Assembly: GCA_041674625.1 (NCBI GenBank) | Contig: JBAYVI010000001.1 | Coordinates: 11,421-75,420 of the forward strand | From: Melioribacteraceae bacterium | GTDB lineage: Bacteria; Bacteroidota; Ignavibacteria; Ignavibacteriales; Melioribacteraceae | Direction: 5' to 3' | DNA length: 64,000 nucleotides | Part shown: positions 1,842 through 29,366 of the stretch, piece by piece | How the letters are laid out: each line of letters begins with the position of its first letter | Numbering within the stretch: position 1 is the stretch's first letter | Translations under genes and position numbers: made by a program | The notes under the pieces: generated by a model | The model's input: only the letters and a program-made list of their open reading frames with translations | What the model was told of the DNA's origin: nothing | The model's database searches: none

Positions 1842-3209
1842 CTAGAGATTCAGCTTCCTTGTAATCTCTTTTCCAGAATCTGAAGTACTAGCATTCCTGT
1901 AGTGCTTCGCTTGTTCCATAGTGCGCTTAATATCATCCTTTCGGGTTTTTTGCATTGTGGGCATGCTTGCAATAATTTCCTCTATCTCTTCAAAGTGTGA
2001 ATCCTTCGCAAGTTGTTCAATTTCCGCCCCGGTCCATTGTTCCAGTTTTGAAGCAATACTGCAATCTAATTTTGAATTGTGCTTTTTGTTCATAATCTCG
2101 ATGATTGCTTTTCTCTCTTGAAGATTAGGAAAGCCAACAAAGAAAATTGCATCCCAACGCCCAGGACGTAGAAATTCAGGCGGCAAAGAAGATAGATCAT
2201 TGCTTGTCGCTACAATGACGCTATCACTTGCCCGGTCATTAAACCATGAAAGGAAATGTCCCACTTGTCCCTTGCTTGTTCCTGAATCCCCAGAACCCAT
2301 AGAAAGCATTTTCTCTATTTCATCAAGCAAGACGACACACTTACCAATAGAGTCAACGGTTTTTGTGAATAGCCGGGTTTTCTTTTCGGTCTCTCCGACA
2401 AGTCCGCCCTTCATTGCTCCAGCATCCGCTTGGATAAGGTCCGCCTGCATGATGTTAGCCAACGCCTTTGCAAAGAGGCTTTTTCCGCATCCTGGTACTC
2501 CTACCAGCAGAATAGAACGCAAGCGCGGCATGTGTTCATTGCCTGGATCAAACGCTTTCATTCTAGCCGACAAGAAACGTTTTGCTTCTTCCATGCCGCC
2601 AACGCTTTCCATATTTTCAGGACGTGCAATACTCATAAAACCAGTTTTCTCGATCAGGGCTTTACGGGCAGACAAAACGCCCTGCCTTGTAATTTCTTTT
2701 GTCTCGATTGCCTGGAGAGCAAGACTGTTTTCGGTTTCCTCATATCCTAAACCTAGACAAGAGCAAGCAATATCGTTTTCTATCGGTAAACCGTATTGCT
2801 TGAAATTCTCTACCATTCCCTGAAATGCAGACAAAGACGGCAAAGAATAATCAATATGGTGGAAAATCTTTTTCAGAGTATCCGGCAATTCTGCATCCGT
2901 GCCAACACAAACAATGCAGACTTGTTTATTCTTCAATGCCTGATAGGTGTTAAGGATCATTTGTTGTATTTCTTTTTTCTCGAAAAACCAGTTAATATTT
3001 TCGCAGATGATAACAGTCTGGGAAAGAGTTTTGGCGTATTCGAGAAGCTCCGCAATGTCCTTGTATTCGCCTTGTATACCTTCCAGCGGGTTCCACTTCA
3101 GAATGGGGAAAGAATCGCCCGTAGTAATGTCTTGAACGGCTCTTTTAATTTCGAGCGTTTCAATACAGACAAGAGGGACACCTGCTTTTATGTAGTTTGT
3201 GAGATTCAT
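1842..3209 (-). CDS. AAA+ ATPase (CDC48/FtsH-like ATPase module)
   Basis: Walker A GVPGCGKS, Walker B VVLLDEIE, and ATSNDLSSLPPEFLRPGRWD (sensor/Arg-finger region). I moved the start to ATG 3209 (MNLTNYIK), which overlaps the stop of 3206..3418 as ATGA. The track ORF runs to 3332. Confidence 0.85.
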   Translation of the reverse strand: MNLTNYIKAGVPLVCIETLEIKRAVQDITTGDSFPILKWNPLEGIQGEYKDIAELLEYAKTLSQTVIICENINWFFEKKEIQQMILNTYQALKNKQVCIVCVGTDAELPDTLKKIFHHIDYSLPSLSAFQGMVENFKQYGLPIENDIACSCLGLGYEETENSLALQAIETKEITRQGVLSARKALIEKTGFMSIARPENMESVGGMEEAKRFLSARMKAFDPGNEHMPRLRSILLVGVPGCGKSLFAKALANIMQADLIQADAGAMKGGLVGETEKKTRLFTKTVDSIGKCVVLLDEIEKMLSMGSGDSGTSKGQVGHFLSWFNDRASDSVIVATSNDLSSLPPEFLRPGRWDAIFFVGFPNLQERKAIIEIMNKKHNSKLDCSIASKLEQWTGAEIEQLAKDSHFEEIEEIIASMPTMQKTRKDDIKRTMEQAKHYRNASTSDSGKEITRKLNL

Positions 3210-3418
3210 TTTGTAGCCTCTTTGTCTAAATGATGTTTGACTAATTTCCAGATATAACCATGCTTGCCTTCTGGGGTACATGTTTTCCCCGTACAACAGT
3301 GAGAACAAACAAGCATTGAACAACCTTTGCAAGCATGGTTTGCGGGATGATATGGAGTGTCATCCCTTACCAGCTCAAAACAATTCCCATCTATATCTAT
3401 GTATGCTGTATCACTCAT
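3206..3418 (-). CDS. Cys-rich small protein (70 aa)
   Basis: Track ORF with a cysteine cluster CKGCSMLVCSHCCTGKTC. Translationally coupled to the AAA+ gene. Confidence 0.5.
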   Translation of the reverse strand: MSDTAYIDIDGNCFELVRDDTPYHPANHACKGCSMLVCSHCCTGKTCTPEGKHGYIWKLVKHHLDKEATK

Positions 3419-13926: not shown

Positions 13927-14133
13927 ATGAAAAATTCATTCGAAGATGATTCAAAATTTAAAGACATTCTAGAAAGACTAGAAACTGAAGTCAATTCATT
14001 TCAAGAAGAGATTATAAAACTAGACGAATTAGTTGATTATTTTCCAGAATTAGCCGTAGAAGCTACAGTAAAAAAAGACCAGCTTGAAGAAATAATTGAA
14101 AAAATTCAAGAGATAATTGAAGATTATTCATGA
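13927..14133 (+). CDS. hypothetical acidic coiled-coil protein (68 aa)
   Basis: Track ORF with an AGGAGG SD. Overlaps the TerS start. Confidence 0.55.
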   Translation: MKNSFEDDSKFKDILERLETEVNSFQEEIIKLDELVDYFPELAVEATVKKDQLEEIIEKIQEIIEDYS

Positions 14134-14849
14134 AAACCAAAAAAGTAAAAGTTATCACGACTGATTTAAGCACGGACTTAGATACCGAACAACCACAAAA
14201 TCCAGCAACATATTCTGACTATATTCAAGAAACAGAAGATATGATAAATAGCACTGATTATAGTGCTGACGAATTTAACCAAGCAATAAAAATTATTCAA
14301 TCAATAACCGATGCAGATGAATTGCCTTGGAAGGTTCAAAGATTCTGCTCTGAATATGTTGTCCACTACGATGGACAGAAATCAGCTATAAAGGCTGGAT
14401 GGCCAGAATGGAATGCTAATACATTTGCAAAAAGGTTATTATCTCATCCAAGAGTCCGAGCAGAAATTGAACGCCTTCAAAAAAATGTAGCGACTAAACT
14501 TCAGATTACTCAAGAACGAGTCCTAGAAGAAATTGCACATATGGCCTACGGGAACGTTGCAAATTTTTATGATGAAGAAGGTGTATTAATTCCTGTTCAT
14601 AAATTAGAGAAACATATTAGTGCCAGTATTCAGGATATGGTCTATGATAGAGGCGGAAGATTACTAGGTTATAAACTAGCGGCGAAGAGTGTTGCCCTTG
14701 ATGCCCTTTCTAAGACACTTGGTATATTCGATAAAGGTTCAGATAGAACTCTCCCAGTTGATTTAAAACAATTCCTCTCCATGTTGCCACAAGAATTGCA
14801 AGAAACCATCCGCGTGGGATTAGCCAAACGCATTTCAAATAAGAAATAA
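14130..14849 (+). CDS. terS: terminase small subunit
   Basis: QRFCSEYVVHYDGQKSAIKAGWPEWNANTFAKRLLSHPRVRAEIERL is a Terminase_2-like pattern. Position is immediately upstream of TerL. Confidence 0.75.
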   Translation: MKTKKVKVITTDLSTDLDTEQPQNPATYSDYIQETEDMINSTDYSADEFNQAIKIIQSITDADELPWKVQRFCSEYVVHYDGQKSAIKAGWPEWNANTFAKRLLSHPRVRAEIERLQKNVATKLQITQERVLEEIAHMAYGNVANFYDEEGVLIPVHKLEKHISASIQDMVYDRGGRLLGYKLAAKSVALDALSKTLGIFDKGSDRTLPVDLKQFLSMLPQELQETIRVGLAKRISNKK

Positions 14850-14850
14850 T

Positions 14851-15042
14851 ATGCTAGATTATTTAATTCATGTATCTAAAATAGAATACGGTAGTACGGC
14901 TTATTACAGGTCATTCTTTATTTCTGAAAATAAAATAGAACCACTTTGTAATTGTAAAAATGGACATCAAGACCATTCTGATGCTTTGTACTGTAAAAAA
15001 GCAGTTAAGAAAGGTATAGAATATGTTGTGAATTGTGTATGA
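14851..15042 (+). CDS. hypothetical protein (63 aa)
   Basis: Track ORF between TerS and TerL. Confidence 0.4.
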   Translation: MLDYLIHVSKIEYGSTAYYRSFFISENKIEPLCNCKNGHQDHSDALYCKKAVKKGIEYVVNCV

Positions 15043-16760
15043 TTGATTTCGATGATGATATTTTAGATAATTTAGCGAGTATATTTGGCGAAGATCAGAT
15101 AAAAGAAGTGGTCGAGGGTAACTTAACTAGATATCAGAATGACCCTGTAGGATTCATGAAGAATGTTCTAAAAATAGAACACATAAGCGATGATTTAATT
15201 AGTGCTTGTGAAAGCGTTTTAAAAAATAAAATTACTATTGCTCAATCTGCAAATGCAACAGGTAAAACATGGCTCCTTGGACATCTAGCGATTTGGTTTT
15301 ATTTATGTTTCGAAGAATCGCAGGTAATAATGATTGCATCCCCTCCAGAGAGTAACCTTAAGGAGAAGAGCTTTGCTGAGGTTCTAAAGGTATTTTATAA
15401 GAATAAACATCTCTTTGACGGTAAGCATGTAGTAACAACTCTTAAAATAGCAGAAAGTGGCAAGGGAACTGATGCCAACCCGAAGCATTTTATTATTGGG
15501 AAAGCAATCCCTTCTTCTGGCTCTCCCGAAGAAAGGACTGCTAAGTTCTCTGGGAGCCACTCTCCCCAGATGCTCGTCTTAGTCGATGAGGCAAATGGGT
15601 GTCCCGATGAGATTTTCGTAGCACTCGAAGGTGTTTTGTCTGGGTCTTGGAATAAAATGTTTTGTACATTAAATCCAAGACAAAAATCTGGAGCTTGCTA
15701 CCAGATGACAAAAACTGATAAAGCAAATACATTAGTGCTATCGGCATTTTCTCATCCGAATGTCGTGACTGGGGAAGATATTGTTCCAGGAGCTGTAAGC
15801 CGTGAGAAAACGGTACAACGGATTACTGAGTGGACCCAACCATTACCGGATGGTGAAGAACCCACGAGAGATTGTTTTGAAGTACCAGAATATTTAGTCG
15901 GATGTTCTGCAATATCTGGCTCAGGAAAACAACTAGAAACATTAGCGGCTGGATGGAGAAGGATAACATATCCACCCTTTTCGACAATAGTATTAGGCCA
16001 GTACCCATCAACAGATGCTAATACATTAATTGATGAGACATGGATTGATGCGGCGGTGTCAAGATGGAAACTATACACAGCACAATATGGGAAAGATAGT
16101 ACAAAGGGGATAAATTGTGTGCTAGGCTGTGATATAGCGGATCAAGGTATGGACTTCTGCTGTGTAGCAAAAAGATATGGGAGTTATATTTCTGGATTTG
16201 AAAGATGGCGTGGATTAGACTTAGATATATCTAGCGATAAAATATCTCAAATATATATATCTGCTAATGCTTATCAGTGTAACGTAGAGGCGGACGGTAT
16301 AGGTGCTGCAATTCCCCCTAAAGTGTCAAGACAAGGATTTTGGAAGTGTGAGAATAAAGAATGCGAAGGGTATGACACTAATTATATTGACGATAATGTA
16401 TTTAAGTGCCCCATTTGTCAAAAAGAAATGTCTAGGAAACATATTAACGTAAGAAAAGTATATGTTTCCTCCCCTTCTAATAAAAAATGTGATCTGGGTA
16501 AGTTTGGGTTAGTTAGGGATGAGTTGTACTGGCTAGTTGCGGATTGGCTTAAAAGAGATCCATCGGCCATGATTCCAGATATTCCAGAATTGAGAGAGGA
16601 GATGTTAGCCTTCGAGTATTTTGAAGATCAAAGTTCTGGGAAAATTAAGGTTTCTGATAAAAAATCAGTAGTTAAAAAAATACAGAGAAGTCCTGACTAT
16701 TTCGCATCACTAATTCAATGTTTTTTCGAACCAAAAATTCCAAGCATTAGGGTAATATGA
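15033..16760 (+). CDS. terL: terminase large subunit
   Basis: P-loop-like SANATGKTW and Walker B LVLVDEANG, with a C-terminal nuclease-type region. It contains an inserted CxxC...CxxC ribbon (WKCENKECEG...FKCPICQKE). Confidence 0.9.
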   Translation: MCMIDFDDDILDNLASIFGEDQIKEVVEGNLTRYQNDPVGFMKNVLKIEHISDDLISACESVLKNKITIAQSANATGKTWLLGHLAIWFYLCFEESQVIMIASPPESNLKEKSFAEVLKVFYKNKHLFDGKHVVTTLKIAESGKGTDANPKHFIIGKAIPSSGSPEERTAKFSGSHSPQMLVLVDEANGCPDEIFVALEGVLSGSWNKMFCTLNPRQKSGACYQMTKTDKANTLVLSAFSHPNVVTGEDIVPGAVSREKTVQRITEWTQPLPDGEEPTRDCFEVPEYLVGCSAISGSGKQLETLAAGWRRITYPPFSTIVLGQYPSTDANTLIDETWIDAAVSRWKLYTAQYGKDSTKGINCVLGCDIADQGMDFCCVAKRYGSYISGFERWRGLDLDISSDKISQIYISANAYQCNVEADGIGAAIPPKVSRQGFWKCENKECEGYDTNYIDDNVFKCPICQKEMSRKHINVRKVYVSSPSNKKCDLGKFGLVRDELYWLVADWLKRDPSAMIPDIPELREEMLAFEYFEDQSSGKIKVSDKKSVVKKIQRSPDYFASLIQCFFEPKIPSIRVI

Positions 16761-17088: not shown

Positions 17089-18468
17089 ATGGCGACACCA
17101 TTTGATTTAGAAATAAAAGCTAGGCGGTCAAGTAATGCATCGACTAGAAAGACTTCTCTACCTTGGCTGAATCAATATCAGTACGGTAGAGAATTGTATA
17201 GTGATGATAATTTTTACGCAATGATAAATGCGTATAAGAGTTGGGTATATGTGGCGGCTAGTAAAAATGCTACAACGTGTGCGAGTACACCCCTGAGACT
17301 CTATGTTGCTAAAAATAACAAAGGTAGTCTAAAGGGGTATCCGACAAGGAAAGTAACGAAGCAAGCTGAAAGGTATTTAAGGGAAAATTCTTCGTTAGAG
17401 AATATTCCGGCGTTTAGGAAGGCGGTGGAGATTGAAGAGGTGCTTCAGCATCCGTTTTTGGATTTAAAAACTAATGTAAACCCCTTTCTTAATTCATTTG
17501 ATCTTATGGAAATGACTCAATTAAACCAGGAGCTTACAGGAAATGCGTACTGGCAAATCATCACAGATCGTATGGGGGTTCCAAAAGAAATTTGGATTAT
17601 TCCAACTACCGACTGCAAAATAATCCCGCATCCCACAAAATTTATCTCTGGGTATAAATATATCAAAGGGTCAACAGAAATAGATTTATCCGAAAAAGAG
17701 GTGATTCATTTCAAAATGCCAAATCCAAAATCTCAATATTATGGATTTGCACCTTTTTCATCTGTAGGTGATATATATAATTTAGATCGTTCTATCAACG
17801 AATATGAGGAATCGATCTTTAGAAATGGTGGTACACTAAGTGGCATATTTGAGACGGAGGAGGCCCTTGGTGATCACGAGTATCAGAGATTGAAGGAAGA
17901 AATTAAAGAGAACTTCACTGGCAAAGCAAATGTTGGCAAAATGCCCCTCCTTGATAATGGGCTAAAATATAAACAATTAGGTACTTCCCCCAAGGAGATG
18001 TCCCATTTGGGTGGCAGAGAGTATGTCAAAGAATCTATCCTCAATGCTTTTGGCATCAGTTTGGGTATGTTTTCAAAAGACTCGAATAGGGCCAACGTCC
18101 AAGGTGCAATAAAACAGTACACGGAATTCACGATTAAACCGAGACTAATAAGATTTCAAGAAAAACTTAATGAAAAACTCATTCCAATGTATGACGAAAA
18201 GCTTTTTGTAGCCTTTAATTCTCCAGTTCCTGAGGATGAGGAGTTTGCTCTTAATCAGAGAGTCAAGCACGTTAATTTTGGAATAGAAACGATAAATGAA
18301 GTGAGGAGAGAACTAGGGAAAGAACCATTTGATTCACGTTTTGACGAGCCGATTATTCCGGTAAATATGACCCATATTGATAATATTCTTGCTAGTATTG
18401 CTAACGGCACAGGAGAAGGGAACATTGTCGATTCTCCTGGCAAAATGCTTAAATTATTAAATAGATAG
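17089..18468 (+). CDS. portal protein (HK97-family type)
   Basis: 459 aa. The ELTGNAYWQI and FRNGG motifs and the position after TerL support the call. Confidence 0.85.
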   Translation: MATPFDLEIKARRSSNASTRKTSLPWLNQYQYGRELYSDDNFYAMINAYKSWVYVAASKNATTCASTPLRLYVAKNNKGSLKGYPTRKVTKQAERYLRENSSLENIPAFRKAVEIEEVLQHPFLDLKTNVNPFLNSFDLMEMTQLNQELTGNAYWQIITDRMGVPKEIWIIPTTDCKIIPHPTKFISGYKYIKGSTEIDLSEKEVIHFKMPNPKSQYYGFAPFSSVGDIYNLDRSINEYEESIFRNGGTLSGIFETEEALGDHEYQRLKEEIKENFTGKANVGKMPLLDNGLKYKQLGTSPKEMSHLGGREYVKESILNAFGISLGMFSKDSNRANVQGAIKQYTEFTIKPRLIRFQEKLNEKLIPMYDEKLFVAFNSPVPEDEEFALNQRVKHVNFGIETINEVRRELGKEPFDSRFDEPIIPVNMTHIDNILASIANGTGEGNIVDSPGKMLKLLNR

Positions 18469-18625: not shown

Positions 18626-19630
18626 ATGAAAAATACAAAGGATGGGTTACACATAAACTGTAAAGATTGTTGTTGTAAAATATCGAGAGATAAAAGAAAG
18701 GAATATAGGAATAATTTAATTATAAGAGATCTTAAAGAAAATAAAAAATGTAGGATATGTGGAATAATAAAAGATATTGCGGAATTTCATAAAAACAAAT
18801 CGTCGTTTGATGGTCGTGCATATATTTGTTCAGATTGCGCTTGTAACGAGAGTAAAAGATATAGAGGTATGTATAAAGAAATTAATGAGATAGGGAATAT
18901 CTGCCATGATGTGAAAAGATGTAGCCATTGTAAGGAAGAAAAAGAGATAGAAAATTTTAATTCAGATATTTCAAGTTTTGGAGGATTTGACAAATATTGT
19001 AAAGAATGTCGTTCTATCATGAATAAAGAATATTCTGAGAAAAATAAAGATAGGATTTCTGAATTTAGGAAAATAAATTATATAAAAAATAGAGATTTAA
19101 TTTTAGATAGACAGAGAAAATCTATGGAGGATATTGCGACATTTGCTAGATTTGGGCATAGATTGACTTCTGAAGAAGAGGCAATAGAAGGGGAAAATGG
19201 GGCTTTGTTGATTAAATGTACACATTGTAAAAAATATCATGTACAGAAAAACAAAGTAGTCCTGAATAGAATTGCTGCATTAAATACCCCAGGCGGTAGC
19301 GAATCGAGGATTTATTGTTCTGACCAATGTAAACAAGATTGCGACATTTATTGGGCAAAGCTAATCCCCAAATCGCTTAGGAATATTGCAAGCAAATCTC
19401 GCTGTAACCAGAATAGAGTAAGAGAAATTTTACTAGATATTCAATTTGACGAAATGGGATGTAACTGGTGCGACAAATGCGGTGATATATTTGGACCAGA
19501 AGATTTATTCTTCCACCACAATATCCCGATTGGTGATGACCCAACAGAATACGATAACGCAGCTCATTATATGCTTGTTTGTAAAGATCATCACGAACAT
19601 AAAGGTTGTCTTGGAAATAAATATGAATAA
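18626..19630 (+). CDS. HNH endonuclease with N-terminal zinc-ribbon repeats (5' end probably at ATG 18564 across an A6 run)
   Basis: HNH region FFHHNIPIGDDPTEYDNAAHYMLVCKDHHEHK. Repeats follow the pattern CxxC-x(n)-F-x(n)-CxxC. The first repeat (ICKECKTEKNSSEFYN) lies upstream of the track start in the same frame. Confidence 0.75.
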   Translation: MKNTKDGLHINCKDCCCKISRDKRKEYRNNLIIRDLKENKKCRICGIIKDIAEFHKNKSSFDGRAYICSDCACNESKRYRGMYKEINEIGNICHDVKRCSHCKEEKEIENFNSDISSFGGFDKYCKECRSIMNKEYSEKNKDRISEFRKINYIKNRDLILDRQRKSMEDIATFARFGHRLTSEEEAIEGENGALLIKCTHCKKYHVQKNKVVLNRIAALNTPGGSESRIYCSDQCKQDCDIYWAKLIPKSLRNIASKSRCNQNRVREILLDIQFDEMGCNWCDKCGDIFGPEDLFFHHNIPIGDDPTEYDNAAHYMLVCKDHHEHKGCLGNKYE

Positions 19631-19717: not shown

Positions 19718-20950
19718 TTGCAAGAAAATCAACCAAACGATTTAGAACTTACAATCCAAACTTACCTTGACTTAGGTAAAAATGCAAGAGCTACAGCTAA
19801 AGCATTAAACCTTCCAAGAAGTACAGTCCGCAATCGTTTGAAGAAAGCAAAAAATAATCCTAAATATAAAGCATTATTAAACATATCAGAAGATTTTAAA
19901 GTAACAGATACAAATATTTTAAATCAACAAATCCAAGAATTAAGAAGGCAGTTAAATTCTGCTCAAAAGAGTACTTTATTCACAGAACAGATTAAGAAAT
20001 TTGTACTTAAATTAAAAGATTCAGACCCTATTTATCCTGAGTGGTTGGATAATTGCTTTGGTATTAAAAAAGACGATATAATTGGTGTTCCTACTTTAAT
20101 ACTAAGCGATTGGCATTACGGGGAGGTAGTAGATCCAAATCAGATATTCGGCGTAAATGAATACAATATGGAGATTGCAAAGGAAAGGTCAAAAATTGTA
20201 GTTGATAAATGTATTGACCTTGCTTTTAATCATATCGCTAATCCAAAATATCCTGGAATTATTGTGGCATTGCTTGGAGATATGACTACTGGACTTATCC
20301 ATGATGAATTAAAAATTACTGGCGAAAAGGAAGTTCTCCAAGTTACATTAGAACTTCTTGGGGTAATGATTGAAGCTATTAATAAATTAGCAGATGCTTT
20401 CGGAAAGGTATTCTTGCCTTGTGTTGCTGGTAATCATGGAAGACTGACTCTCAAGCCAAGGGCAAAGGGTTATGCATACGACTCCACCGATTGGCTATTA
20501 TTTCAACTACTTGCGAAGTTCTTTGAAAATGATAAACGAGTAAAGTTTTTAATTTCGGATGGTGAAGATGCACAATATAAAGTTTACGATTTTACTTATA
20601 GGATTTCACACGGATCGCAGTTTAAAACGGGAGATGCAATCATAGGCAGCGCGGGAAGTATTATCAGAGGAGATATTCGGAAGCGTTCTTCTGCTCGTTC
20701 AATGGATGCGGAATATGATGTGCTGTTAATAGGCCATTTTCACCAATCAATGACAATTGCCCAAAGGTGTATTTGTAATGGATCGTTGGTTGGTTATAGT
20801 GAATATGCTGCTAAATGCAACTTTCCGTTTGAACCACCTACACAAAATTTCTTTATTACCCATCCAATTCATGGGGTGACATTTAACTTACCAATTAGAA
20901 TAGAGAACAAGGTACAAGAAAAGAAAGAATGGGTTTCCTGGGAGGAATAA
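19718..20950 (+). CDS. calcineurin-like metallophosphoesterase with N-terminal HTH
   Basis: Phosphoesterase motifs are SDWHYG, LLGDMTTG, GNHGR and GHFHQ. The N-terminus LGKNARATAKALNLPRSTVRNRLKKA is HTH-like. TTG start. Confidence 0.7.
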   Translation: MQENQPNDLELTIQTYLDLGKNARATAKALNLPRSTVRNRLKKAKNNPKYKALLNISEDFKVTDTNILNQQIQELRRQLNSAQKSTLFTEQIKKFVLKLKDSDPIYPEWLDNCFGIKKDDIIGVPTLILSDWHYGEVVDPNQIFGVNEYNMEIAKERSKIVVDKCIDLAFNHIANPKYPGIIVALLGDMTTGLIHDELKITGEKEVLQVTLELLGVMIEAINKLADAFGKVFLPCVAGNHGRLTLKPRAKGYAYDSTDWLLFQLLAKFFENDKRVKFLISDGEDAQYKVYDFTYRISHGSQFKTGDAIIGSAGSIIRGDIRKRSSARSMDAEYDVLLIGHFHQSMTIAQRCICNGSLVGYSEYAAKCNFPFEPPTQNFFITHPIHGVTFNLPIRIENKVQEKKEWVSWEE

Positions 20951-21228: not shown

Positions 21229-21468
21229 ATGGCTTTAATTTATCATTTAGTCCGTATAAAGCAGAATACACATGGACAATTAGAACCTGTAAATAGAGAT
21301 TATTGCCCTTTATATAAGGATAAAAACGAAATATCAGTATGTCAAGATGGAGATAATTATTGTGTAGGTATTGAACAAGGAAATGTTATAAAACAACTAG
21401 ACAGTATTACATATTTAATTCAATGTAATTATTTTAATACAAAAAGAAGTAAAGCAATAGATAAATAA
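21229..21468 (+). CDS. hypothetical protein (79 aa)
   Basis: Track ORF. Confidence 0.4.
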   Translation: MALIYHLVRIKQNTHGQLEPVNRDYCPLYKDKNEISVCQDGDNYCVGIEQGNVIKQLDSITYLIQCNYFNTKRSKAIDK

Positions 21469-21483
21469 GATAGGAGGAATATA

Positions 21484-24132
21484 ATGACTGTAAATAAAGC
21501 ATTTGCGTATATTAAAAAAGATGATTCTTTGGATTCTGAGCGTAGTATTATTTGCTATGCTTCTACTAATAGCGTTGATCGTCATGGAGATATGATCTTG
21601 CCTACGGCATGGTCCGAAAAAGGCATGAAGAATTACCGTAAGAATCCGGTAATTTTGCTTAATCATGACTACCATAATACATTGCCTGTTGGTAAATCTT
21701 TATGGCAGAAGACTGATGATAAAGGGTTAAAATTTAAAATCCAGTTTGCCGATACGGATCTAGGAAGGGAATTATATTACCTATATTCTGGTGGCTATAT
21801 GTCAAGCTTCAGCGTGGGTTTTCGTCCAGTGAAAACGTATGATAATGAAGATACTAAAAAATATAAGGATGAAGATGGTAATATTCCCCATACAGTTTAT
21901 GAAGAATGTGAACTATTAGAATTATCAGCCGTAAATTTGCCTGCAAATGCCGATGCTAACATGATTAGAACCGTAAAAGGGTTAGTAGAACAAGAAAAAG
22001 GTGGGTTTGTAAAATCTAAAGAATTGATTGATTTTATTGGCGGTATCAAGAGTTCAAAAGAATATATTGAATTAATTTCTGAGGACGAAGCAAAAGAAGC
22101 TCCACAAGAAAAAGCGAAAATTGTAGGGCATATCGATTTAGATTTTGACAATAAATATGTGAATGAAGATGAAATGATGATTATTCCACTTAAAAAGAAA
22201 TATGAAGATTGTGAAAATAAATGCGATAGTTGTAAAGATTGTAATAACGAAGAATTAACTGGAATTGTTGAAGAACCCGTTGAAGAAAAGTCACAAGATG
22301 ATACTGATATCCAAGAGAAGGCTGAAGAGAAAGCAAAGAAACCATGTAAGAAAGAAGACGGCTGTGATGGTGAGTGCATTGGCGATGAATGTGATGAGTA
22401 TGATTCATGTGATGAAGAAATGAAGAAACAATTCGTTGAGGTTTCTATTAATAAAGAAGTTATAGAGGAGATTACCGAAGAAAAACAAATTGAAGAAGTT
22501 GTTGAAACGGAAATCAAATCAGAATTGGATGAAATTATTGAAGATTCAATTAAAGAATTAGAAGAGGAAAATATAGAAATAAAAGACACTTCTTACATTC
22601 AAAAAACGATTGATTTGTTTAATTCTTTAAATATTAAAAATATTACTCCAGAAATGAAAGAACAAATCAAAAAACAATACGGAGAAGAGTTTGATATTTC
22701 AAGTGTAAAAGTAGAACCATATGGTTTTGAATATAAAATTTTCTGTAAGTTCCTTGGTTGTAAAGTAAAAGAAATTTTTACTAATGACTTTTTTATTCCT
22801 ACTGTAGAAAGAGGGAATTACCTTTCTGCCATTAAGACTGTGTTAAAAGATGCAACTCTCCTTGATCAAAGGGCATTTACTCAAAATGGTTGCGAAGTTC
22901 CGCTTAAATATAGCACTATTAAATTAAATTCAAAAAGATCAGATGAATTTTTAATTACCGGGACTCAATTTTATAAATCCACTGATGGTGAATCATTCAT
23001 CCTTCAATTCTACCCTGTCTGGGGAGGAATGATAGCAGATATCTATTGTTCAAAAGACAAAAATAAAATAGCAAAATCATTATTTGTTGATTCTGTTAAG
23101 TGGGTAGAAAAAAATAATTTTCTTAGAGGTGAAAAATTTTCCGTTAGCGGTGAATTTTTAGAAAGAAAATTATTTGAATGGGATGATGTAATTTATTCAA
23201 GTGATAAAGATAAAGAGACTATCAAGAAGAATGTTGAGAAGTTGTCAGAAACCTCTCCTAGTCGGGGGATGATGCTTGTTGGCCCTCCAGGAAACGGCAA
23301 AACTACCCTCGGCAAAGTTATGATGAATAAAATGGATTCAACATTTATTTGGGCTAGTTCAAAAGATTTTGAATGGGGTGCGGATTATACATTAGGTATT
23401 GGCTTTGAGATGGCTAGAAAATTAGCCCCCGCTGTATTTTTTATTGAGGATATTGATGGTTGGTTAAATGCTTATACTGTTGATCTTCTCAAGACAGAAA
23501 TGGATGGTATTAGAGACAATAAAGGCGTTCTTACTATCTTAACAAGTAATTTCCCCGAAAATATGCCAGATGCATTGATTGATCGCCCAGGCAGATTCCA
23601 TCATATTATAAATTTTTCTTTACCAAATAAAGAAAATAGAATAAAATTATTAAAGTTTTTTACTGAAAATGCCGATAAGGAAAGTATAGAAAAATTTGCA
23701 GATATGACAGAAGGATATAGTGGTTCACATCTAAGAGAATTAGTAGATTTTGCAAAAATGATTTCCGAAGATGAAGAAATTTCAATAGACGAAGCATTAA
23801 TGAAATCGTTTGAACAAATGAAAGAGCAAAGACAATTAATCCATGATATTAAAAATGAACCGAAGAAGAAAGAATTTATTGATATCGAAACTGTAGAAGT
23901 TAAAGATTCTAGTATTGATTTTGAAATTAAAAATACTGAAGAGGAAACGGTAATTAAAGAAACGATTGATTTTGAGATTAAAGAAACTAAACAAAGTGTA
24001 GATTTTAATATTACTAAAGAAGAGGCTCAAGAGATAATTAAAAATTCAATTATTAATGTAGCACAAGAAATGCAATCGATTGAAGACTTAGTTGATGAAA
24101 GAATTAAAAGAGCAAAGGGTATTATTTTTTAA
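21484..24132 (+). CDS. prohead protease (S78/HK97 type) - acidic/Cys-rich linker - AAA+ ATPase fusion protein
   Basis: The N-terminus has LLNHDYH, GYMSSFSVGF and ELSAVNLPANADA. The middle is an acidic Glu/Lys-rich region with a Cys cluster. The C-terminal part has Walker A GPPGNGKT (23281-23304), Walker B FFIEDID and DALIDRPGRFHH. TAGGAGGAAT SD. Confidence 0.85.
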   Translation: MTVNKAFAYIKKDDSLDSERSIICYASTNSVDRHGDMILPTAWSEKGMKNYRKNPVILLNHDYHNTLPVGKSLWQKTDDKGLKFKIQFADTDLGRELYYLYSGGYMSSFSVGFRPVKTYDNEDTKKYKDEDGNIPHTVYEECELLELSAVNLPANADANMIRTVKGLVEQEKGGFVKSKELIDFIGGIKSSKEYIELISEDEAKEAPQEKAKIVGHIDLDFDNKYVNEDEMMIIPLKKKYEDCENKCDSCKDCNNEELTGIVEEPVEEKSQDDTDIQEKAEEKAKKPCKKEDGCDGECIGDECDEYDSCDEEMKKQFVEVSINKEVIEEITEEKQIEEVVETEIKSELDEIIEDSIKELEEENIEIKDTSYIQKTIDLFNSLNIKNITPEMKEQIKKQYGEEFDISSVKVEPYGFEYKIFCKFLGCKVKEIFTNDFFIPTVERGNYLSAIKTVLKDATLLDQRAFTQNGCEVPLKYSTIKLNSKRSDEFLITGTQFYKSTDGESFILQFYPVWGGMIADIYCSKDKNKIAKSLFVDSVKWVEKNNFLRGEKFSVSGEFLERKLFEWDDVIYSSDKDKETIKKNVEKLSETSPSRGMMLVGPPGNGKTTLGKVMMNKMDSTFIWASSKDFEWGADYTLGIGFEMARKLAPAVFFIEDIDGWLNAYTVDLLKTEMDGIRDNKGVLTILTSNFPENMPDALIDRPGRFHHIINFSLPNKENRIKLLKFFTENADKESIEKFADMTEGYSGSHLRELVDFAKMISEDEEISIDEALMKSFEQMKEQRQLIHDIKNEPKKKEFIDIETVEVKDSSIDFEIKNTEEETVIKETIDFEIKETKQSVDFNITKEEAQEIIKNSIINVAQEMQSIEDLVDERIKRAKGIIF
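23650..23679 (+). promoter_or_regulatory. sigma-28/FliA-type motif embedded in coding sequence
   Basis: TTAAAGTTTT-N11-TGCCGATAAG read in frame as LKFFTENADK. It lies about 0.9 kb upstream of the MCP gene. Confidence 0.35.
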
Positions 24133-24417: not shown

Positions 24418-24559
24418 TTTTTTAAATAAAACATAAATTATGGTTATACATCCTCAGTATAAAATATACCAAAAATCACTAAGGATGTCAAGAAAATTGC
24501 TGGAGATACTTTAGAGGTATTAGGCGATTATTAAAATAAAATATTTGGAGGAATTAAAT

Positions 24560-25807
24560 ATGGAAAAAAGTGAATTTGAAGCACTTGTAAAGGACACTAC
24601 TACTGAAGCCGTTAAGGGTATTATGGATGCTAATAACGAGAAGCTTGCGGACGTTATTGATGCTAAGATCAAGGAAGCGGTAGTTGATGTAGAGAAGCGG
24701 ATTGTGGTAGGGAAGGAAGAAATGGAAAAGGATAAGAAAGCTGGGTTTAAATCATTTACTCATTTTTGTGTAGACATCGCAAAGGCCTCTGCGTCTGGTT
24801 TTCGTAAAGTAAGTTCTGAACTCGAGAAATGGGAAACTCATTGCACTAAAGCTGCTGGGTCTCCTTCTCAGAATGTTTCTGATGGTGAAGCTGGTGGTTA
24901 TCTTGTTCCTGAAGAGTTTCGTCAGAACCTCCTAGTTGCGACTAGAGAAAAAAATGAGTTCATGTCCCGTTGTACTCAGATTCCCATGCAGAGTAATGTA
25001 GTTAAAATCCCCTATGTAAATGGCTTCGATAAATCAGGGAATCTTGTATATGGTAATGTAGCTTGGCAGTGGACCCAAGAAGAAGAAGATTTCACCGCTA
25101 AAAACGTGAAGTTCGGTTATATTAACCTTGCTCTTCATAAGGTAACTGGTATGGCTTACGTTTCTGATGAGATTCTTCGGTTCTCTCCTATGAGTATGGA
25201 GAACATCCTTCAAGAAGGATTTATTGATGGATTTAATTATGAAATGAACCGGGTTATTCTTAAAGGAACAGGAGCTGGCCAACCGCAGGGCATTCTTTCG
25301 GCCCCTGCAACTATTAGTATTGCTGCCGAATCTGGGCAAACGTCCACTCAGATTCTTTGGGAAAACGTGATTAAGATGTACGCTCGTTGTATCAATCCCG
25401 CAAATGCAATTTGGATTGCTAATCCAAATACCCTTCCTCAATTAGCTTCTATGAGCCTTGCTATAGGAACAGGCGGAATTCCTGTATTTATGCCTGCTGG
25501 GGGAGCTGCCGGTCAGCCTTATGCAACTCTATTTGGTCTTCCCCTTGTATTTAGCCATCATGCTAAGTCTTTGGGTACTGCTGGAGATTTAGTCCTTGCT
25601 GATATGAAACAGTATCTCTTGGGTATGCTTGCTGGCGATGAAGGTATGAGATTTGATACTTCTATGCATATTAAATTTGAAACGGACCAGCAGGCTTTCC
25701 GTTTTGCGTTCTATGTGGCCGGACAGAGTTGGATGCCAACATACCTTACTCCTCCTGAAGCTACGTCTGACACTCTTTCTCCGTTTATTATGATTGCCAC
25801 TCGGTAA
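24560..25807 (+). CDS. major capsid protein, HK97 family
   Basis: GGYLVPEEF motif, an N-terminal coiled delta-like region, and 415 aa following the protease. ATG 24560 with a GGAGGAA SD is preferred over the track's TTG 24545. Confidence 0.9.
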   Translation: MEKSEFEALVKDTTTEAVKGIMDANNEKLADVIDAKIKEAVVDVEKRIVVGKEEMEKDKKAGFKSFTHFCVDIAKASASGFRKVSSELEKWETHCTKAAGSPSQNVSDGEAGGYLVPEEFRQNLLVATREKNEFMSRCTQIPMQSNVVKIPYVNGFDKSGNLVYGNVAWQWTQEEEDFTAKNVKFGYINLALHKVTGMAYVSDEILRFSPMSMENILQEGFIDGFNYEMNRVILKGTGAGQPQGILSAPATISIAAESGQTSTQILWENVIKMYARCINPANAIWIANPNTLPQLASMSLAIGTGGIPVFMPAGGAAGQPYATLFGLPLVFSHHAKSLGTAGDLVLADMKQYLLGMLAGDEGMRFDTSMHIKFETDQQAFRFAFYVAGQSWMPTYLTPPEATSDTLSPFIMIATR

Positions 25808-25938: not shown

Positions 25939-27036
25939 ATGGCAAGAAAAGCAAATAAAGTAGAAGTAAAATGTGAAACGTGTGGCATCCAAAAGATTAT
26001 CACTGAAAGAGCATATAACGACAATAAAACAAAGAGGTTTTATTGTAATTCTGAATGTAGAAGTAAAGATAGATTTAAACAAATAGATGTTAGTTGTCCT
26101 AATTGTGGGAAAGAATTTTGGGTTCCAGAATCGCAATTTAATCGGACAAAATCTAAAAAGTTTTATTGTAGTGTAAAATGTAGGAGTGAACATTCTAATA
26201 TTTTATCTATTTGCTCCGGTTGCGGAAAAGAGTTTATAAAGAAATCTTATGACAAAGGCGGTCTATTTTGCAGTAATGAATGTTACTTTAAAAGCATAAG
26301 AAACAGGGTTAAAACAAATTGCGCTTTTTGTGGGAAAGAAATAGAAAAATCTAGACATCAATTTGATACTCAAGATAATTGTTTTTGCTCAAGGGAGTGT
26401 TTGTTTAGCTGGCAACGTGAAAATTGGCAAGGAGAGAGCCATCCTAATTATTCCCAAATTGAAATATCTTGTGGTTTTTGTGGTAAACAGATATCGAGAA
26501 ATAAATGGCAGGTAGAGAATAGAAAATATCTCTTTTGTGATTCTTCTTGTCTTCACGATTTTATGAAAAGTGACAAGTCATGGGGAAGAAAAGATAAACA
26601 TTTAGTACCGTGTTCGAATTGTGGCAAAGAATTACTGGTTTCACCTGCTGAAGTGGATCGATATTGTAAACATTTTTGTGATTCTTCTTGTAAGAGTGAA
26701 TTTAATGTCGGAGAGAATAATCCTAACTGGAGAGGTGGATTATCATTCCAAGATTATGGGATGGAATTCAATGAAACACTAAAAGGGGTTGTTAGAAACA
26801 GGGATAATAGGACTTGTCAGTTATGTGGAGAGGTGGAAACGGATAGAAAGCATGACTGTCACCACATTGATTATTGCAAGGAAAATAATGTAGAAGAAAA
26901 TCTTATTTCTTTATGTAGAGCGAATGGATGCCACTCAAAAACAAATGGGAATAGGAAGTATTGGGAAAAATATTTTAAGGAATTAATAGAACAAAAGTAT
27001 AATAATCTTTTGGATGCTGCACGTTCAACAACATAA
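25939..27036 (+). CDS. HNH endonuclease with six tandem FCS-type zinc fingers
   Basis: Six repeats of CxxCG-x(15-19)-(F/Y/L)FC(S/N/D)xxC. The C-terminal HNH region is CQLCG...HDCHHIDY...NLISLCRANGCHSK. Confidence 0.8.
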   Translation: MARKANKVEVKCETCGIQKIITERAYNDNKTKRFYCNSECRSKDRFKQIDVSCPNCGKEFWVPESQFNRTKSKKFYCSVKCRSEHSNILSICSGCGKEFIKKSYDKGGLFCSNECYFKSIRNRVKTNCAFCGKEIEKSRHQFDTQDNCFCSRECLFSWQRENWQGESHPNYSQIEISCGFCGKQISRNKWQVENRKYLFCDSSCLHDFMKSDKSWGRKDKHLVPCSNCGKELLVSPAEVDRYCKHFCDSSCKSEFNVGENNPNWRGGLSFQDYGMEFNETLKGVVRNRDNRTCQLCGEVETDRKHDCHHIDYCKENNVEENLISLCRANGCHSKTNGNRKYWEKYFKELIEQKYNNLLDAARSTT

Positions 27037-27628: not shown

Positions 27629-27703
27629 AGCGGGTTGGAGAAGTAGGAACTCGTCAGGCTCATATCCTGAAGATCATAGGTGCAAATCCTATACCCGCTA
27701 CCA
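27629..27703 (+). tRNA. tRNA with CAT anticodon (Met or Ile2; not initiator-like)
   Basis: Hand-folded. Acceptor AGCGGGT/ACCCGCT, anticodon stem TCAGG/CCTGA with loop CTCATAT, T arm ATAGG-TGCAAAT-CCTAT, encoded CCA. The T-loop has G where U55 is expected. Confidence 0.7.
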
Positions 27704-27725
27704 ATATCAATAGAGGATTTAAAAT

Positions 27726-27992
27726 TTGGGAAACGAATACGTTAAAGTCAAATTCCTTTCAGATTGGATGGGTCATCCCGAAGGTTCCACCCTAACAATC
27801 ATGAAGGTAAAAGCGAATGAATTAAAGGCGAGGAATATTATTAAACTAGTTGATACAGTTGATTCTAAATCTTTGATTGATTTAAATAATAAGATTAAAG
27901 AAGAAATTAAAAACCTTGATTCTCCGCCTATGAATAAAATGATAGATTCCCCTCAAATTAAAAAATCTAGTGGTAGACCGAAAAAGAAGTGA
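27726..27992 (+). CDS. hypothetical protein (88 aa) with basic C-terminal tail
   Basis: Track ORF with a TTG start and a GAGGA SD. The C-terminus is KKSSGRPKKK. Confidence 0.4.
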   Translation: MGNEYVKVKFLSDWMGHPEGSTLTIMKVKANELKARNIIKLVDTVDSKSLIDLNNKIKEEIKNLDSPPMNKMIDSPQIKKSSGRPKKK

Positions 27993-28001
27993 ATTGATTA
28001 T

Positions 28002-28079
28002 CTGTGTGTAGCTCAGTCTTAGTAGAGTAACCGCCTTGGACGCGGGAAGTCGGAGGTTCGAATCCTCCCACCCAGACCA
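28002..28079 (+). tRNA. tRNA-Pro (TGG)
   Basis: Hand-folded. Acceptor CTGTGTG/CACCCAG (one U-C mismatch), anticodon loop CTTGGAC, T arm GGAGG-TTCGAAT-CCTCC, encoded CCA. Confidence 0.75.
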
Positions 28080-28100
28080 TAATAGAATAGATTTTTAACG

Positions 28101-28176
28101 GCTGGATTAGCTCAGTTGGTAGAGCATCTGCCTTGTAAGCAGGCGGTCACGGGTTCGATGCCTGTATCCAGCTCCA
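28101..28176 (+). tRNA. tRNA-Thr (TGT)
   Basis: Hand-folded. Acceptor GCTGGAT/ATCCAGC, D arm GCTC-AGTTGGTA-GAGC, anticodon loop CTTGTAA, T arm ACGGG-TTCGATG-CCTGT, encoded CCA. Confidence 0.85.
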
Positions 28177-28664: not shown

Positions 28665-29366
28665 ATGGAAAATGTATTAGGTAATAGGTACGGAAGATGG
28701 ATTGTAATAAACAACAATCCGAGTATCAGGACGAAGAAAAGAAGATCGGTCATTTGTCAATGTTCATGTAAAAAGAAAACCGTTAGGGAAGTAACTATTG
28801 TAGATTTGAAAATGGGTAAATCTAATTCTTGCGGATGTCTCCAAAGAGAAAGGGCAGCAGAATCGAATAGTACTCATGGGCTTTATAGGCACCCTTTGTA
28901 TAATATCTGGGGTTTAATGATGGGAAGATGCTATAACAAAAATGGAGTTCAATATAAGGATTGGGGCGGTAGAGGAATAATAGTTTGCGATGAGTGGAAA
29001 TATAATCCCGAATTATTTATAGAATGGTGTTTAGAAAACGGATGGGTTCAGGGATTAGAAATTGATAGAGAAAACAATGACGGGAATTATGAACCAAATA
29101 ATTGTAGATTTGTAACATCTCAGATAAATATAATAAACATGAGATTAATTCAATCAAACAACACATCTGGATATAGGGGCGTTTATTATAATAAACGCAA
29201 AAGAAGTTATTGTTGCCAAATTGGATATAACAAGAAATATATTTTAAGTGAATCTGGCTTCAAAACACCAGAACAGGCGGCGAAAGCACGGGATATATTT
29301 ATTATAAAAAACGATTTGCCTCATAAATTAAATTTCCCAGAACTAGCAATTAACGGGCCGCTATGA
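28665..29366 (+). CDS. AP2-domain, homing-endonuclease-like protein (paralog of 6997..7815)
   Basis: HPLYNIWGLMMGRC...CDEW...EIDRENNDGNYEPNNCRF plus the AP2-like YRGVYYNKRKRSYCCQI. Confidence 0.6.
   Translation: MENVLGNRYGRWIVINNNPSIRTKKRRSVICQCSCKKKTVREVTIVDLKMGKSNSCGCLQRERAAESNSTHGLYRHPLYNIWGLMMGRCYNKNGVQYKDWGGRGIIVCDEWKYNPELFIEWCLENGWVQGLEIDRENNDGNYEPNNCRFVTSQINIINMRLIQSNNTSGYRGVYYNKRKRSYCCQIGYNKKYILSESGFKTPEQAAKARDIFIIKNDLPHKLNFPELAINGPL

Follow-up and report, generated by a model that had tools for sequence, protein, structure and literature searches.

Introduction

Prohead proteases are built into the procapsid, and to our knowledge capsid maturation in tailed phages and herpesviruses needs no nucleotide hydrolysis before terminase-driven DNA packaging. 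HK97 gp4 and the proteases of its type (MEROPS S78, PF04586, TIGR01543) have an N-terminal catalytic domain with a His/Ser pair and a C-terminal extension with a conserved tail, and they are encoded between the portal and a major capsid protein (MCP) that carries an N-terminal scaffolding domain. HK97 gp4 is about 225 residues long, and we know of no described S78 protease that contains a nucleotide-hydrolysing domain. Here we analyse a gene that resembles the gp4-type proteases in all of these respects but differs from them in encoding 882 residues, of which about 400, between catalytic domain and tail, make up a folded ATPase module. It is located in a stretch of 64,000 nucleotides (the window) of contig JBAYVI010000001.1, assembly GCA_041674625.1, whose assignment to a Melioribacteraceae bacterium as host comes from the name of the metagenome bin alone.

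Longer relatives of the S78 proteases are known. Commonly the protease is fused to a scaffold or capsid protein (PHROGs 617, 2263 and 4523; NF045541), and a first-pass annotation of the window had stated this for scaffold-like regions in HK97-like phages. In these protease/MCP fusions and in lambda C/Nu3, as in the gene described here, an N-terminal S78 domain opens a longer head-assembly polyprotein and is followed by a flexible acidic region. The fusion partner, in contrast to the present one, is a scaffold or capsid protein and never an ATP-using enzyme. An AAA ATPase and a protease are found in one polypeptide in Lon and FtsH, and there, as here, ring assembly is expected. However, the domain order is the opposite one, the protease, a ring of the Ser-Lys or Zn kind, has another fold and catalytic type, and the two activities form a rigid stacked chamber, whereas the protein of the window has an N-terminal protease of the S78 type on a long flexible tether of 234 residues.

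YjoB and Bcs1 are exceptional in having ED rather than DE in the Walker B motif, although both are active, and in both of them a ring of family-specific N-domains encloses a chamber (PMC9565160). YjoB, a hexamer, is an ATP-regulated and substrate-specific holdase in which the chamber guards against aggregation, and the heptameric Bcs1 carries the folded Rieske protein across a membrane; the characterised members of this branch handle folded proteins in the chamber and do not thread unfolded chains (PMC9565160). Jumbo phages have standalone BCS1-like AAA+ genes, for which a role on folded proteins bound for the head has been proposed (Iyer, Anantharaman, Krishnan, Burroughs, Aravind 2021, PMC7824862). 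Those genes resemble the present one in encoding phage BCS1-type ATPases, but they are genes of their own without a demonstrated link to the capsid, whereas here the ATPase is covalently joined to the protease and lies in the capsid cluster. With Bcs1 and YjoB the fused module shares a classical AAA core with an E-D Walker B motif, and a putative counterpart of their N-domains, an α+β domain specific to its own family, lies directly upstream. Unlike Bcs1 and YjoB, the module has no membrane anchor, it is embedded in a protease polyprotein, and its rings and chamber are predicted.

Results

A prohead protease and an AAA ATPase in one open reading frame

The product of the gene (Table 1) is identical to an 882-residue fusion in NCBI, which is entered there as 'MAG: AAA family ATPase [Melioribacteraceae bacterium]' and comes from a contig of 144,548 bp. 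A Pfam scan of this protein finds Peptidase_S78 at residues 12–161, AAA at 596–712 and a weak AAA lid at 734–767. The S78 prohead protease that the first-pass annotation had seen at the N-terminus is matched by three models, namely PF04586 (62.7 bits against a threshold of 21, E 6e-17), TIGR01543, 'HK97 family phage prohead protease' of NCBIfam (59.9 bits against a cut-off of 59), and PHROG 80, 'head maturation protease' (8e-29), and all the peptides that the annotation quotes lie where they were said to be. The full AAA+ module is equally present, with Pfam AAA above threshold and GPPGNGKT at residues 600–607, as had been placed, and so are the acidic [IV]DF[EN]I[KT] repeats in the C-terminal tail.

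A fusion seen on one metagenome-assembled contig, with a low-complexity linker, might be an artefact, in that an error of sequencing or assembly had merged two neighbouring genes, or the gene might be a pseudogene in decay. The same architecture in one open reading frame (ORF) is, however, found on dozens of independent contigs from different samples, at 39–94% identity, and every catalytic motif is intact. We regard an artefact as a negligible prospect, and a sequencing error is ruled out by the many independent contigs on which the one-ORF fusion is kept; the fusion as first annotated is genuine. Twelve further full-length homologues, on independent contigs and with 46–82% identity, each contain both domains, and the gene order terminase, portal, protease–ATPase and capsid protein is maintained in those of their loci that were examined.

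The same fusion recurs widely in related genomes, where the first-pass annotation had proposed to look for it. A scan of IMG/VR with patterns specific to the subfamily of the window protein gave 63 distinct viral loci. Fifty-seven of the 58 loci with an intact 5′ end have the protease and the module in a single stop-to-stop ORF, and an MCP homologue lies no more than about 2 kb downstream of the fusion gene in every locus with sufficient DNA. A profile of residues 371–800 gave 1007 matches at E<1e-30 among 1.84 billion representative proteins. We inspected the best 150 of these, and the family size is thus a lower bound: the module is present in at least 150 protein clusters (50% identity). 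All of the best 150 matches have E<1e-111, nearly all span essentially the whole 400-residue module, and most are proteins of 700–1600 residues with the module in the C-terminal half.

With a purpose-built S78 hidden Markov model (HMM), which like the tail model was built from close relatives, the protease was detected N-terminal to the module in 112 of 147 new representative clusters. Ten further proteins, including nine from the 35 clusters that the HMM had missed, were scanned with Pfam; S78 was found in three (P0097, P0111 and P0184), and no other protease family was found at the N-terminus of the scanned members in which the HMM had failed. The proteins among the best 150 in which no protease was detected are, apart from a few long ones, short or begin at the module, and this is consistent with 5′ truncation of most of them. 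Judging from the sequences of these best 150 matches, the module is rarely if ever free of the protease. Two members have a different layout. In P0115 the module occupies residues 3–403 and S78 follows at 431–627, which is either a reversed order or two neighbouring genes read as one, and in P0132 (1625 residues) the module is preceded by a domain of the ATP-dependent DNA ligases.

The fusion is absent from the cultured phages on record: among 50,697 phage records (GenBank/INPHARED), searched by tblastn with two divergent queries, the window protein and the GC-rich member P0186, none had both halves, and 0 records covered at least 80% of either query. Pfam, PHROG and NCBIfam have no model for the protease–ATPase fusion or for the middle domain of the protein, and the full text of the literature that we searched describes no covalent fusion of this kind, only standalone phage BCS1-like genes. 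This agrees with the first-pass annotation, whose author was not aware of any such fusion. The fusion is not a rarity, as it forms a large metagenomic family. Of the condition under which the first-pass annotation would have been refuted, that the fusion be common and already annotated in known phage families, the first half thus applies, but the fusion is neither annotated nor described. The novelty lies in the enzyme that a prohead protease of a known kind carries here, and in the viral setting of the Bcs1/YjoB branch. A prophage scan of species-representative genomes gave 599 pattern sites and no confirmed relative, but the patterns are subfamily-specific, so this does not amount to evidence of absence. 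A profile of the middle domain retrieved two fragments only from a collection of 5.8 billion proteins, a search that is bounded by a word-index limit.

The ATPase module and its placement among AAA proteins

Alignment to the D1 and D2 domains of p97/Cdc48 positions every AAA motif of the fused module. Walker A (GPPGxGKT), Walker B (hhhhED), the TSN motif of sensor-1, DRPGRF and TEMDG are all invariant in 13 close homologues. The ATPase is expected to be an active, ring-forming member of the classical AAA clade, because Walker A, N689, R701, R704 and TEMDG do not vary; the conserved arginine fingers imply that the active sites are formed between subunits, and nothing further. The acidic pair in Walker B has the order E-D (E655–D656) and not D-E, and E-D-[IV]-D is found in 144 of 144 clusters. 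The aromatic residue of pore loop 1 (W631–G632, W/Y-G) is held in near relatives, whereas across the family this position is Y in 54, R in 30, H in 14 and K in 11 of 144 clusters.

By sequence, the nearest matches of the AAA core in the PDB are p97, Cdc48 and VAT, whose scores sum two domains at 60–64 bits each. The best single-domain score, 85 bits, belongs to Bacillus subtilis YjoB. We also modelled residues 371–800 (predicted local distance difference test, pLDDT, 66) and compared the model with the PDB by Foldseek, which returned YjoB and then Bcs1 on top. These two are the only PDB entries that align over 380–440 columns, i.e. over the middle domain and the AAA core, while other AAA proteins align with the core only. 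Because of the ED motif, the best per-domain sequence match and the fold match over the whole module, we place the fused ATPase in the Bcs1/YjoB branch of the classical AAA proteins. The label 'unfoldase' in the first-pass annotation is less apt for a module with an E-D Walker B motif, an N-domain of its own, whole-module matches to YjoB and Bcs1 only and a loosely kept pore-loop aromatic. Bcs1 proper, a mitochondrial protein with an N-terminal transmembrane anchor in the inner membrane, was considered and rejected: the module has no membrane anchor, and it follows a 30% acidic linker in a polyprotein without a hydrophobic segment.

The middle domain, which takes the place of the N-domain in the module, is 50–75% identical and gap-free in the 13 homologues and is conserved over the 144 clusters. 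Its motifs, CxVK, IPsxxxGxYL, DxRNxxxxGxExPPxYExIQLNS, PxWxG and NNFLKGExFSLSGEF, are retained in both AT-rich and GC-rich lineages. No Pfam family, BCS1_N included, matches this domain in 39 diverse members even at E≤10, and no solved structure matches it by sequence, as all PDB matches begin at the AAA core. An AlphaFold model of the middle domain alone, built on a deeper alignment, has a pLDDT of 91.4. The fold matches of this model in the PDB are weak, with Bcs1 chains at ranks 2, 5, 6, 7 and 10 (template modelling score, TM, 0.32–0.35). In a viral structure library giant-virus 'BCS1' chaperones recur, and all PDB and viral matches are weak, at TM 0.41 or less. Homology of this domain to the N-domains of Bcs1 and YjoB is putative. 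Of the structure predictions that the first-pass annotation had suggested, for residues 400–590 and for the AAA clade, that of the whole module points to the Bcs1/YjoB branch, and that of the N-domain alone yields weak matches only (TM about 0.3–0.4).

Protease domain, linker and conservation

The protease domain is mosaic: the 13 close homologues have three sequence subtypes of it, and His61, Ser110 and E146-x-S148 are invariant across all three. Residues 400–800 are gap-free and form the best-conserved part of the fusion protein in these homologues, ahead of the protease, which implies strong purifying selection on an active machine.

Residues 166–399 form the linker, the acidic and Cys-bearing stretch that the first-pass annotation had noted after the protease. 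It consists of Asp and Glu to 30%, has a net charge of −37 and contains nine Cys. Its length and content vary among the homologues, and across the family it measures 20–405 residues. A motif EKAK[IV][IV]G[HFY]IDL is conserved in it. A cluster of Cys at 22210–22242 (residues 243–253) includes a CxxC upstream of a larger Cys motif, KPCK[KQ]E.G.C.G.C.EY..C.EE.KK, at 22345–22410 (residues 288–309); the window protein has five Cys in this motif, and four of these are conserved. The larger motif also occurs in protease-only relatives, is duplicated in P0004, P0010 and P0016, and is found in 8 of 106 linkers family-wide; its pattern suggests a small metal-binding knuckle. A nested internal start in the style of lambda C/Nu3 was rejected, as the Met codons of the linker vary among the homologues and no conserved start was seen.

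The slot between the protease domain and the tail

The last ~45–60 residues of the tail, with the pattern [IV]DF..T.EE....LVDERIKRAKGIIF, are common to the ATPase-less protease relatives P0014–P0019. One of these, P0016, aligns with the window protein only at residues 1–317 (51%) and 825–882 (47%) and has an unrelated insert in the middle. P0014 aligns over residues 1–219 and continues with a decayed AAA-lid remnant and the tail, and its sequence is that of a deletion derivative from which the ATPase was lost. In the phage that encodes P0016 (locus L004) the gene order is unchanged and the nearest 8 kb contain no AAA gene, and its capsid protein is 80% identical to the MCP of the window over all 420 residues, the N-terminal scaffolding region included. 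These alignments place the ATPase module in a slot whose content can be exchanged, between protease domain and tail. It is accessory to the basic assembly of this capsid type, because near relatives with an 80%-identical capsid protein have another insert, or a remnant, in its place.

Two optional modules were seen in the linkers of P0002, P0004, P0005, P0010, P0011 and P0013–P0015 and in the slots of P0015 and P0016. One is a unit of ~70 residues, 'ETTEEYHHIPV...YLFDV..F..EEA..WV..HKK', and the other, of ~110 residues, 'SSLPIS..W.G......GSYKLPFAD', stands in place of the ATPase in P0015 and P0016. These two modules gave no Pfam match and no functional PHROG match, and the slot contents of the protease-only relatives gave no functional match among the PHROGs.

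A C-terminal extension is kept in all clades of the family, with a median length of 145 residues. Duda, Oh and Hendrix reportedly identified the C-terminal region of HK97 gp4 as a capsid-targeting signal in 2013. The C-terminal propeptide of SPN3US gp245 has been proposed to carry a packaging signal (PMC7411985), and encapsulins, which have the HK97 fold, load their cargo by means of a short C-terminal peptide after a flexible linker (PMC8229669). By analogy, we infer that the tail is a candidate procapsid-targeting signal. Carriage of the ATPase into the procapsid gains indirect support because, in the sequence, the module lies between the protease domain and the tail that protease-only relatives have in common with it.

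Discussion

For the location and function of the ATPase module we infer, as quite possible though short of probable, a capsid-maturation protease carrying an accessory ATP-driven chaperone that would ride into the procapsid and act there as a ring chaperone. Like other prohead proteases, the polyprotein would be docked by its tail to the inside of the growing shell, and tens of ATPase copies would be co-assembled within the procapsid. Six or seven copies of the module would join, like YjoB and Bcs1, into a ring with an N-domain chamber. ATP would enter by diffusion via pores in the capsid, and the rings would spend it on gripping, holding or pulling interior proteins of the capsid, whether folded or partly folded. 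The most plausible substrates would be the scaffolding (delta) domains of the MCP, the polyprotein's own linker and other internal proteins, which would thus be presented to the tethered protease domains, six or seven per ring. Such an ATPase would improve or gate maturation without being indispensable; we regard its role as facilitating rather than essential because close relatives with nearly the same capsid protein manage without it. The N-domain is conserved in AT-rich as well as GC-rich lineages, which a conserved phage-internal partner or a part in ring formation would explain better than a host-specific target, and the near-absence of 5′-complete module proteins without a protease likewise points to a phage-internal partner. 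That ATP-consuming Bcs1/YjoB-like rings, brought into the procapsid by the fused protease, might handle folded scaffold or internal proteins during maturation, or load or retain folded cargo, seems doubtful, if conceivable.

Several observations weigh against a ring chaperone in the procapsid. Delta domains of the HK97 type are digested without ATP in model systems. The phage at L004 combines its 80%-identical capsid protein with an ATPase-less protease, and the ATPase of P0014 is deleted, which implies that scaffold clearance can do without the ATPase. Scaffold removal had been listed among the possible roles in the first-pass annotation, and it is unlikely to be what the ATPase is required for, given that the scaffolding domain is included in the similarity between these capsid proteins. 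A folded 45-kDa module in the head must later be degraded or tolerated. The C-terminus [KR]xxG[KR][VI]x is found in 35 of 144 clusters, and other clades have other tails. The match of the whole module to YjoB and Bcs1 rests on a model of moderate confidence (pLDDT 66), and the N-domain alone is only weakly similar to those of Bcs1 and YjoB (TM about 0.3), with no sequence match.

The main rival to the procapsid chaperone is a piggy-backed cargo. The ATPase, loaded between the protease and the tail, would be cut free by the protease, stay in the DNA-filled head and enter the next host by ejection. There it would refold, form rings and act before phage gene expression, e.g. by remodelling or neutralising a host complex. 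An exchangeable slot is in line with such an accessory cargo: P0015 and P0016 have an unrelated insert in it and P0014 has a remnant, all with a capsid protein that is still 80% identical, and the same linker takes up further optional modules. [quoted passage not shown] Like T4 internal proteins with their CTS, DarB and encapsulin cargo, the fusion protein combines a short terminal signal with a flexible linker and a folded payload, and the payload is exchangeable between relatives; unlike in those systems, the putative signal is the protease's own tail and the payload lies within the protease gene. We nevertheless consider ejection rather unlikely. The module is conserved above the protease and its N-domain motifs are the same in AT-rich and GC-rich lineages, unlike host-targeting effectors, and among the best 150 matches it is rarely if ever found without the protease. 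A ring-forming domain of 45 kDa would moreover need to resist the protease and to unfold to traverse the tail.

The module could also work in the cytoplasm, before or during shell assembly, and be destroyed thereafter. It might then be a YjoB-like holdase for the capsid protein or the portal, an oligomerisation platform that keeps the protease inactive up to its concentration in the shell, or a scaffolding core that nucleates assembly. We consider such a regulator or assembly chaperone unlikely, as a close relative builds its shell from the same capsid protein and lacks the module, and as there is no sign of an internal start for a free scaffold-like product, with linker Met codons that are not conserved. 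On the other side stand the example of YjoB, an ATP-regulated and substrate-specific holdase with a chamber against aggregation (PMC9565160), the position of the acidic linker where other protease fusions have scaffold-like regions, and the frequent fusion of S78 to scaffold or capsid proteins; related contigs measure 97–144 kb, so the capsids are probably large and assembly fidelity harder to achieve. We judge it very unlikely that the protein is a processive machine like Lon or FtsH, whose ring would thread scaffold or internal proteins and feed the unfolded chains to the attached proteases. The reversed domain order and an acidic flexible tether of roughly 230 residues (20–405 across the family) imply that there is no stacked proteolytic chamber, the pore-loop aromatic is not kept family-wide (see the counts above), and the E-D Walker B motif and the N-domain indicate the Bcs1/YjoB branch, whose characterised members work without threading. 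This holds even though ATPase and protease share one chain and the core is of the classical clade, with both arginines of the second region of homology (SRH), the inter-subunit motif TEMDG and an aromatic-Gly pore loop in the window protein and its near relatives, and with FtsH, PAN and Cdc48 among its nearest sequence neighbours.

Well over a hundred lineages have an intact and conserved AAA ATPase covalently joined to their maturation protease. This suggests that energy is used, in a way not recognised so far, at the procapsid or within it; alternatively, a large enzyme destined for the host would be loaded into the head by a new route. If a procapsid chaperone is correct, there would be an energy-dependent step where only assembly, proteolysis and DNA packaging were thought to drive maturation, and an ATP-using machine in the procapsids of a large uncultured group of tailed phages. 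The little-understood Bcs1/YjoB branch gains a viral member with an obvious candidate partner, and the earlier speculation on phage BCS1 genes gets a concrete physical link and becomes testable. The slot between protease and tail could also serve for loading designed cargo in HK97-type shells.

Gene neighbourhood and other features of the window

The head module has the order small terminase, large terminase, portal, two nuclease-like genes, fusion gene, a 91-codon ORF and MCP. The fusion gene occupies the protease position between portal and MCP, and the gene order is the same in loci L001, L002 and L004 and in the IMG/VR loci. In the MCP the capsid domain begins at residue 117, and the about 116 N-terminal residues that precede it are likely a delta/scaffolding domain; this MCP is the expected substrate and partner of the fusion protein.

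Table 1 Features of the fusion gene and of the head module, with positions in the window.
Feature	Residues	Position	Strand	Basis or location
Whole fusion gene (prohead protease, acidic linker, N-domain, AAA ATPase, tail)		21484..24132	+	ATG start, 882 codons + stop (ORF list)
S78 / HK97-family prohead serine protease domain	12–161	21517..21966	+	Pfam PF04586, PHROG 80, TIGR01543
Catalytic His	H61	21664–21666	+	protease domain
Catalytic Ser	S110	21811–21813	+	protease domain
Motif E-x-S	E146-x-S148		+	protease domain
Acidic variable linker	166–399	21979..22680	+	composition; many gaps and low identity among homologues
Middle (N-) domain of ATPase module	about 400–592	22681..23259	+	α+β fold; without Pfam family
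Classical-clade AAA ATPase core and lid	593–795	23260..23868	+	Pfam AAA 1e-17 and weak AAA_lid_3
Walker A, GPPGNGKT	G600–T607	23281–23304	+	AAA core
Pore loop	F629-E-W631-G632		+	AAA core
Walker B, including E655–D656	V651–D658	23434–23457	+	AAA core
Sensor-1 and SRH arginines	N689; R701, R704	23548–23595	+	AAA core
TEMDG motif			+	AAA core
C-terminal tail	796–882	23869..24129	+	acidic [IV]DF[EN]I[KT] repeats, then conserved last 58 residues
Conserved end of tail, ...LVDERIKRAKGIIF	last 58	23956–24129	+	candidate procapsid-targeting signal
Small terminase		14130–14849	+	PHROG match
Large terminase		15033–16760	+	PHROG match
Portal		17089–18468	+	PHROG match
Major capsid protein (MCP), HK97 fold		24545–25807	+	Pfam Phage_capsid, residues 117–394, 2e-42

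Between portal and protease, a gene at 19718–20950 (+) encodes a 410-residue protein with an N-terminal helix-turn-helix (PucR-type) and a match to PHROG 284 'exonuclease'. This gene has the same place in L001 and L002, and L004 has a shorter Metallophos-like gene there. Directly 5′ of the fusion gene, at 21229–21468 (+), lies a 79-codon ORF, and in L002 and L004 an ORF of similar size (73–79 residues) is found in this place. Three ORFs for Cys-repeat-rich nucleases of the HNH/EndoVII type are scattered in the head module, at 18626–19630, 25939–27036 and 28665–29366 (all +). They are endonuclease VII/Lar-like, zf-FCS/TRASH repeats with HNH, and HNH of PHROG 374, and they look like homing endonucleases; relatives carry other nucleases at those same places.

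A second AAA ATPase gene is located at 1842–3332 (−) and encodes about 455–495 residues, depending on the start codon chosen. Its product has a canonical DE Walker B motif (VVLLDEIE) and a ~270-residue N-terminal region of an uncharacterised kind. A paralogue of the fused module is ruled out by the DE Walker B motif and an identity of 21%, and by its sequence this protein is a classical AAA unrelated to the module. Between the MCP and the downstream structural genes, at 27629–28176 (+), there is a cluster of tRNA-Met(CAT), tRNA-Pro(TGG) and tRNA-Thr(TGT).

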